The position numbers were made by a program, and so were the translations under genes. Shown piece after piece: positions 19,790 to 20,475 of a stretch of 64,000 nucleotides of DNA. The stretch lies in the NCBI RefSeq assembly GCF_033153115.1, contig NW_026889776.1, positions 6,014,001 through 6,078,000 on the forward strand. The letters are read 5' to 3'. Source of the DNA: Saccostrea echinata (taxonomy: Eukaryota). The notes under the pieces are model-generated. The model saw nothing but the letters and a program-made list of their open reading frames with translations, was not told the origin of the DNA and searched no databases. Positions within the stretch are counted from its first letter, which is position 1, and each line of letters starts with the position of its first letter.

Positions 19790-20104
19790 ATGATGATTGG
19801 ACTTAAAATAATTTTATATATTTGTGCGATACATTGCGCTATATCCGAAAAACCTGATGTCAACAATATAAAAGTGACCGCACCAGGCCAATGTATCAAA
19901 ACTAGCAAAGTCATAAAAGTTTTAACTATCATAGGACAAAAGCAGTGTATTCGAAAATGTTTACAAAATGGTCAATGTCGGTCTATTAACTATCGAAGAC
20001 AACAACTCCACTGTGAACTAATTGCAGCAGTGTACGGGGACCCGGGAGCTTCTTTGGCCCTGGATTCAGAATGTGATTACATTGAAATGGAAAATCAGCC
20101 AAAG
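19790..20104 (+). CDS. Copy 2: intact signal peptide + PAN/Apple exon with no recognisable downstream exons (orphan, truncated copy or alternative first exon)
   Basis: ATG at 19790; about 89% aa identity to copy 4 over the last 80 aa (manual count 71/80); consensus donor AAG|GTAAGT; read-through adds VSIDFVT* (stop at 20128). Confidence 0.8.
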
Positions 20105-20475
20105 GTAAGTATAGACTTTGTAACGTAACTCGGGTACCTGAAAGGAGTGCAGTCATTATTATAATATTCTAGATTTTTTTTTCTTTCAAATTAACATAAA
20201 TGATGCAGATAATCACAGGAGAATCCTTAATTATAGCAGCCATACTTATAGTTTACCTTAAGTTATTACTATACTTAACTATTTTTTACGGTTACCTTAG
20301 TATTCATTTTTACACTCTGGTTTCCGAATTACAAAGATTTTGAAACTTTACTTAGAAACTATATATGTTGCTTTGATTAAGTATGAAACTCTGGCTTTAT
20401 TACCTTATTAATGATGTAAAGCGATATTTCATTTTTTTTTTTTTTTTTGATCAAACACTGCATGTAAGAAGAAAA

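Follow-up and report, generated by a model that had tools for sequence, protein, structure and literature searches.

An intact orphan PAN exon in a Saccostrea echinata lectin cluster is probably the 5' remnant of a gene truncated by a recent deletion

The window analyzed here is a stretch of 64,000 nucleotides (C27:6014001-6078000, where C27 is contig NW_026889776.1) within a 923-Mb assembly of Saccostrea echinata. It contains four PAN exons; linker exons are found after copies 1, 3 and 4, and none is found after copy 2. The question raised by this locus is how a PAN exon in apparently good condition came to stand without the rest of its gene. An initial annotation had offered three answers: a variable first exon spliced to shared downstream exons, a secreted PAN-only protein, or a recent truncation. 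We read the surrounding cluster in full (C27:5,450,001-6,178,000, 728 kb). A complete sister of copy 2 is present on the same contig, the missing segment ends at a defined junction, the truncated state is the derived one, and the open frame, splice donor and C-terminal tail of the orphan exon were inherited. From these sequence comparisons, the exon is probably the 5' remnant of a PAN-linker-lectin gene truncated by deletion, and likely a young pseudogene. The features discussed are listed in table 1.

Table 1. Features of the window, in window coordinates
Feature	Position	Strand	Remarks
Copy 1	5842..11465	+	PAN, linker 6420-6504, two divergent CTLD exons about 10393-10563 and 11221-11465; layout once present in copy 2
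Upstream region of copy 2 (presumed promoter/5' UTR)	19326..19789	+	Aligns to sister C27:5836970-5837436
Orphan exon, coding part	19790..20104	+	Signal peptide (predicted, hydropathy only) and six-Cys PAN domain; 105 codons; phase-0 donor
Start of intron 1, copy 2	20105..20128	+	Yields VSIDFVT and a stop when unspliced
Remnant of inverted-repeat element	20748..22288	.	Left 1.54 kb of a 2.44-kb TA-flanked element; right end gone
Deletion junction	22288..22289	.	9,193 bp (+/-1) of sister, C27:5839921-5849113, missing
Copy-3 PAN exon	33039..33353	+	Between orphan donor and next linker
Copy-3 linker exon	35736..35820	+	First authentic family acceptor 3' of orphan donor, 15,631-nt gap
Copy-3 CTLD	41820..42790	+	Three exons, 41820-41902, 41991-42078 and 42561-42790; QPD motif; open frame over all five exons

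Translation of 19790-20128 (plus strand) gave an open frame of 112 aa with VSIDFVT at its C-terminus. The product of the orphan exon matched Pfam PAN_1 (E = 5.8e-08, 32.9 bits against a cutoff of 21.4) and has Cys residues at positions 35, 53, 57, 63, 75 and 95; both the score above the gathering cutoff and the Cys pattern identify it as a PAN/apple domain. Its N-terminus is hydrophobic, and the exon ends in the phase-0 donor AAG/GTAAGT at 20104/20105. Translation, Pfam match and donor all agree with the earlier description of an intact frame with six PAN Cys and a consensus donor. Exact look-up in the protein collection found neither the 112-aa nor the 111-aa product; this says little, as no protein of the window's other copies came up there. 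A sequence search of PDB gave 0 matches at E <= 10, and the AlphaFold2 model built on a 19-row alignment had a mean pLDDT of 37, too low for use.

The part of the cluster at C27:5.59-6.18 Mb is a mosaic of three related units of ~200 kb (A, B and W, the last including the window), with identities alternating from 93 to 99.6%. This mosaic could be a recent segmental duplication or merged haplotypes; the end of contig C18 coincides with its start. Copy 2 is present three times on the contig, once in unit A, once in unit B and once in the window. Over 315 nt, the exon of unit A has 0 differences from that of the window and the exon of unit B has 6 (98% identical). A tblastn search of the interval from copy 2 to copy 3 with 16 exon queries, which included both lectin types, detected no linker or CTLD exon at E <= 1, either in the window, as the initial annotation had reported, or in unit A. 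The equivalent interval of unit A is 12,877 bp long and free of N. Its lack of both exon types rules out masked stretches as a hiding place for the missing exons, and bears out the earlier judgment that the two gaps in the window interval were unlikely to conceal them.

In unit B, the gene is complete. The sister PAN exon is located at C27:5837437, 196 kb upstream of the window copy, and has its linker at 5841051. Two exons of lectin type come next, the first at 5842233-5842403 and the second from 5842695 onward; these exons join via GT-AG introns into an open frame of 271 codons. The initial annotation had allowed that a better assembly might reveal linker and CTLD exons belonging to the orphan itself. 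Such exons do exist in this close paralogue, and they are not at the window locus. The sister gene spans C27:5837437-5842939 and is the sole complete one among the three copy-2 genes, of which the deletion leaves it as the lone intact member.

Tested singly, the two lectin exons of the sister had no Pfam match, and the copy-1 exon of the same type matched Lectin_C with E = 0.023, below the cutoff. A WIG motif and Cys spacing are visible in the sister exons, and their best match in the Atlas (0.93) was the perlucin family, with Lectin_C in 25 of 30 matches and 159 of 256 features shared. Based on the motif, the position, the sub-cutoff match of the copy-1 exon and the Atlas lead, we read these exons as CTLD. 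Of 7 candidate homologues of the lost last exon, none passed. The linker and lectin exons of the sister are of the copy-1 type, the linker being closest to copy-1 genes (81%), and its PAN exon is closest to a three-exon-type, copy-4-like gene at C27:6125171 (91.6%), at a depth where the PAN tree lacks resolution. Such a mixture of gene types may hint at an older recombination.

The position of the loss can be seen directly. In the alignment with unit B, window positions 19326-22288 and 22289-23672 match the sequences that flank, on the left and right respectively, a 9,193-bp segment in which the linker, the two CTLD exons, the stop and the 3' region of the sister gene are located. The break bisects a repeat. 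A whole element of 2,439 bp, flanked by TA and ending in inverted repeats of 13 bp, is located in intron 1 of the unit-B gene (C27:5838390-5840828), and a second whole copy with both TIRs was found at C27:6085664-6088051. TIRs and the TA duplication are thus represented by two whole copies, and from these ends and the TA rule we take the element to be Tc1/mariner-like. In the window and unit A, it has only the left TIR (at 20748 in the window) and its last 908 bp are missing. On at least five other contigs (C1, C7, C28, C32 and C33) the repeat continues across the break point, and the left flank of the window and the unit-B-only segment are matched in the order and with the spacing (about 80 bases) seen in unit B. 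Since the sister and other contigs carry an unbroken element, unit B represents the ancestral state, and the window state is derived by deletion.

An identical junction is present in unit A at C27:5618122, indicating that one event accounts for both orphans, whether A, B and W are paralogues or merged haplotypes. Unit A and the window differ by 0.07-0.27% substitutions and by a 733-bp insertion found in the window only. This is a fold-back insertion in copy-3 intron 1 (window 33496-34229), missing from units A and B. Compared with the sister, the flanks are 2.6% different to the left of the break and 0.9-1.2% to the right. The deletion would then fall after the split from the sister lineage (about 1-2.6% apart) and before that between A and W (0.07-0.27% apart). 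Its two ends have a 5-nt word in common, although the join misses a clean microhomology junction by one base, and end-joining at this microhomology may have produced it. In a single step of 9.2 kb, the last three exons of a four-exon PAN-linker-C-type-lectin gene would have been removed; any transcript of the remnant would lack a 3' end of its own and would probably terminate at cryptic sites. Among the three earlier options, it is recent truncation that the complete sister copy, the mapped junction and the bisected element support.

Why, then, does the exon still look healthy? Over the last 237 nt, copy 2 differs from copy 4 by 19 synonymous changes, in line with the several noticed initially, and by 11 nonsynonymous ones (dS 0.47, dN 0.06). 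Most of these differences (28 of 30) are common to the complete sister, which places the action of selection before the loss. In the sister, the donor and the VSIDFVT tail are also the same. Thus, the intact frame, the donor, the tail and the 28 shared differences are all older than the deletion. Moreover, a stop occurs 7-29 codons past the donor in all 17 tested paralogues. Among the 945 possible substitutions in the exon, 53 (5.6%) are nonsense, and after 1-4 neutral changes the frame would still be open 79-94% of the time; with so few nonsense-producing substitutions, an open frame is the expected outcome. The changes on the exon since the deletion were probably too few to break it. As to the 6 differences from the sister exon, 4 changed in the sister and 2 are not polarisable, which gives 0-2 changes in the orphan lineage and 4-6 in the sister lineage. 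About 4 changes are expected per lineage (P(<=2) = 0.22, P(0) = 0.017). Selection before a late deletion would explain the low change on the orphan exon, and so would continued use. The locus is mainly of use as a caution, since an intact orphan exon is the normal expectation after a recent deletion.

The rest of the cluster provides the background for this event. It contains 21 PAN exons, 19 of which have a linker and a full complement of lectin exons of their own. The two orphans are window copy 2 and its twin at C27:5615639, which have one junction in common. Two lectin types were distinguished: copies 3, 4 and 5 have a domain in three exons with a QPD or EPN motif, and copies 1 and 2 and older genes have a divergent domain in two exons with neither. 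The last exon of copy 3 matched Pfam Lectin_C (E = 5.5e-09). Copy 1 is not exon-poor: both of its CTLD exons, of the type lost from copy 2, are present, with 87-88% DNA identity to those of the complete copy-2 sister. The copy-1 PAN domain is without its first and sixth Cys, as are some outgroup PANs. Considering that several outgroup PANs are without one or both of these residues, the idea that their absence marks copy 1 as degenerate is weakened. Near the end of copy 1, an Arg in the window copy corresponds to a Trp in unit A.

Other debris is present in the cluster, and stops interrupt several of its CTLD exons. Three CTLD remnants are headless, having no PAN exon or linker of their own, and so mirror the orphan; they are located at C27:5819073/5821965, 6008269/6011966 and 6092548, and could in principle serve as alternative last exons of the upstream gene. 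Two PAN exons, at C27:5524841 and 5559321, are frameshifted and belong to genes whose lectin exons contain stops, and last-exon stops occur in two copy-1-type genes (C27:5831281; 6098805-6104245). Unit B alone contains a 6.2-kb element at about C27:5850498-5856736, with 22-bp inverted ends and a 4-bp duplication. It resembles Sola-type DNA transposons; its stop-to-stop frames of 447 and 389 codons have no Pfam match.

The same deletion might have had a different consequence. If the surviving promoter reads through, the orphan donor could be spliced to the copy-3 linker, so that copy 2 would act as a second promoter and first exon of gene 3. The resulting PAN2-linker3-CTLD3 product would trade the former divergent lectin domain of copy 2 (no EPN/QPD) for a QPD-type domain. 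We consider this outcome rather unlikely. The acceptor at 35736 is phase 0 and fits the orphan donor, as pointed out initially; it is the first family acceptor 3' of that donor, and the 3' end belonging to copy 2 is deleted. Long introns are tolerated in this family (9-25 kb with 9-48 AATAAA in apparently intact neighbors), and the AG just 5' of the copy-3 ATG is a weak acceptor (-7.5 with a crude matrix), so the copy-3 PAN exon might be skipped. Splicing by read-through is mechanically feasible, and would be an accident of the deletion. A precedent is SIGLEC14/SIGLEC5, where, according to PMC8303736, a deletion puts a lectin gene under its neighbor's promoter. On the other hand, 15,631 nt, 30 AATAAA and the copy-3 promoter separate donor from acceptor, and the donor is nothing new, being the same as in the sister. 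An acceptor matrix with linker acceptors in its training set ranked 35736 first of 741 AG sites. After these acceptors were taken out of the training set (of 25 sites, 1 had no AG and was discarded, and 22 distinct ones were used), it was 20th of 742, 19 sites scoring higher. Nothing firm follows from these rankings in either direction.

The region upstream of copy 2 also weighs against read-through splicing, as it has drifted from the sister much more than the flanks have (47 mismatches in 449 columns). The initial annotation had credited copy 2 with conserved upstream blocks of its own. These blocks do have homologues in other paralogues, as expected for whole-gene duplicates, and they are unusually divergent from those of the sister copy. 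A good acceptor-like AG just before 19782 precedes the copy-2 ATG and is not retained in all paralogues; the PAN exon may therefore not be the first exon. Between 19400 and 19599, 33 of 188 aligned bases (17.6%) differ from the complete sister, compared with 1-6% in neighboring bins, and a TATA-like run near 19568 is present in the window and unit A and missing from the sister and the copy-4/5 paralogues. The divergence of this stretch may reflect decay, conversion or regulatory change.

Read more generally, the locus could be a variable-first-exon arrangement at birth, in which a promoter and PAN exon are spliced over 15.6 kb to the linker and QPD-type lectin exons of a neighbor, giving two promoters and two N-terminal domains in some haplotypes only. 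Such an arrangement is unlikely here. If read-through splicing did occur, parent and derived states would stand side by side at one locus, providing a direct test of how shared-constant-exon loci can arise from whole-gene duplicates.

A functional secreted protein consisting of PAN alone, such as a decoy or modulator, is very unlikely to be made from the remnant, whether as the 112-aa read-through product or as PAN with a short cryptic tail. The predicted signal peptide and all six Cys are indeed within a single exon, and an AATAAA is found at 20704, 576 nt beyond the stop. However, the VSIDFVT tail of the 112-aa product is plain intron sequence: tail and stop are the unaltered intron 1 sequence of the complete sister rather than a dedicated stop and 3' end after PAN, and every tested paralogue would stop within the same short distance of its donor. 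A consensus donor close to the site is also expected to suppress nearby polyadenylation through U1. In addition, two short PAN-annotated homologues from a near-length search (161 and 179 aa) run on into the linker and half of a CTLD and hence are not PAN-only. A possible counterpart is the leech antiplatelet protein (LAPP), a PAN-only protein. PMC7191736 describes LAPP as a small secreted PAN-domain protein with activity of its own; it is an established functional gene, unlike the orphan remnant with its predicted product.

Even harder to credit is an assembly error, or the assembly of one molecule twice as units A and W, with the gene really complete. Apparent haplotype duplicates do occur in the assembly (near-identical match pairs C3/C75, C19/C46 and C18/C27), and A and W are themselves nearly identical. 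Against this, the junction is base-identical in two copies set apart by substitutions and the 733-bp insertion, the sequence around it contains no N, the DNA to its right is unique, and there is microhomology at the join. Finally, an evolved variable-first-exon locus of the UGT1A or clustered protocadherin type, suggested by tandem similar first-type exons with upstream regions of their own and donors in the same phase, has a negligible chance of being correct, as private downstream exons serve 19 of the 21 PAN exons, no constant region is shared, and the orphan state reflects one recent event missing from the sister.

The remnant of a deletion-truncated gene can be compared with several known systems. 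Saccostrea proteins with PAN (PF00024) and C-type lectin (PF00059) domains, named perlucin-like, hepatic lectin-like or macrophage mannose receptor 1-like at NCBI, are 66-76% identical to the orphan exon product and have the PAN-linker-CTLD layout of copies 1, 3 and 4 and the complete sister. One S. echinata protein is identical over its PAN part to a PAN exon on contig C3. Unlike these proteins, copy 2 is left with the PAN exon alone, and its lost CTLD was of the divergent two-exon type, for which no close protein was found. In the literature on PAN and C-type lectins of oysters and other bivalves, and on alternative first exons of oyster lectin arrays, we found no paper on this PAN-lectin cluster; the figures or supplements of PMC10140915, which cover the domain architectures of bivalves, may include the family, and a word search of PMC12842671 gave nothing on PAN.

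In the UGT1, GCNT2 and protocadherin loci, as described in PMC1885805, many variable exons, each with a promoter, are spliced to one constant set that is conserved across vertebrates. The oyster cluster resembles these loci in its tandem related 5' exons, which encode a signal peptide and an N-terminal domain and end in same-phase donors. The fit of the orphan donor to the acceptor at 35736 is true of every paralogue. In contrast to those loci, private downstream exons are present nearly throughout (19 distinct linker exons, matched by an equal number of CTLD sets), the orphan state is a recent loss, and the organization is not conserved even in the 98%-identical sister. The locus is therefore not a member of this class and could at most act as a one-exon version of it.

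For the read-through case, a nearer analogue is the SIGLEC14-SIGLEC5 pair, in which a deletion in a tandem pair of lectin genes left the 5' end of one gene before the exons of its neighbor. According to PMC8303736, the SIGLEC14 deletion removed 17 kb and raised SIGLEC5 expression, the join lying within 692 bp of identity and the two genes being fused in the DNA. Here, in contrast, the join is non-homologous and the neighbor is whole, and a fusion would require a hypothetical read-through splice of 15.6 kb.

The locus also resembles truncated copies in bivalve lectin arrays that evolve by birth and death. Expansion and presence/absence variation are seen in bivalve C-type lectin families (PMC10140915), and in the present cluster some copies are complete and others are stopped, frameshifted or without head or tail. 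Most likely, this locus represents ordinary turnover in such an expanded array. What distinguishes it from other truncations there is that the breakpoint is located to the base and that the same contig retains the parent state.
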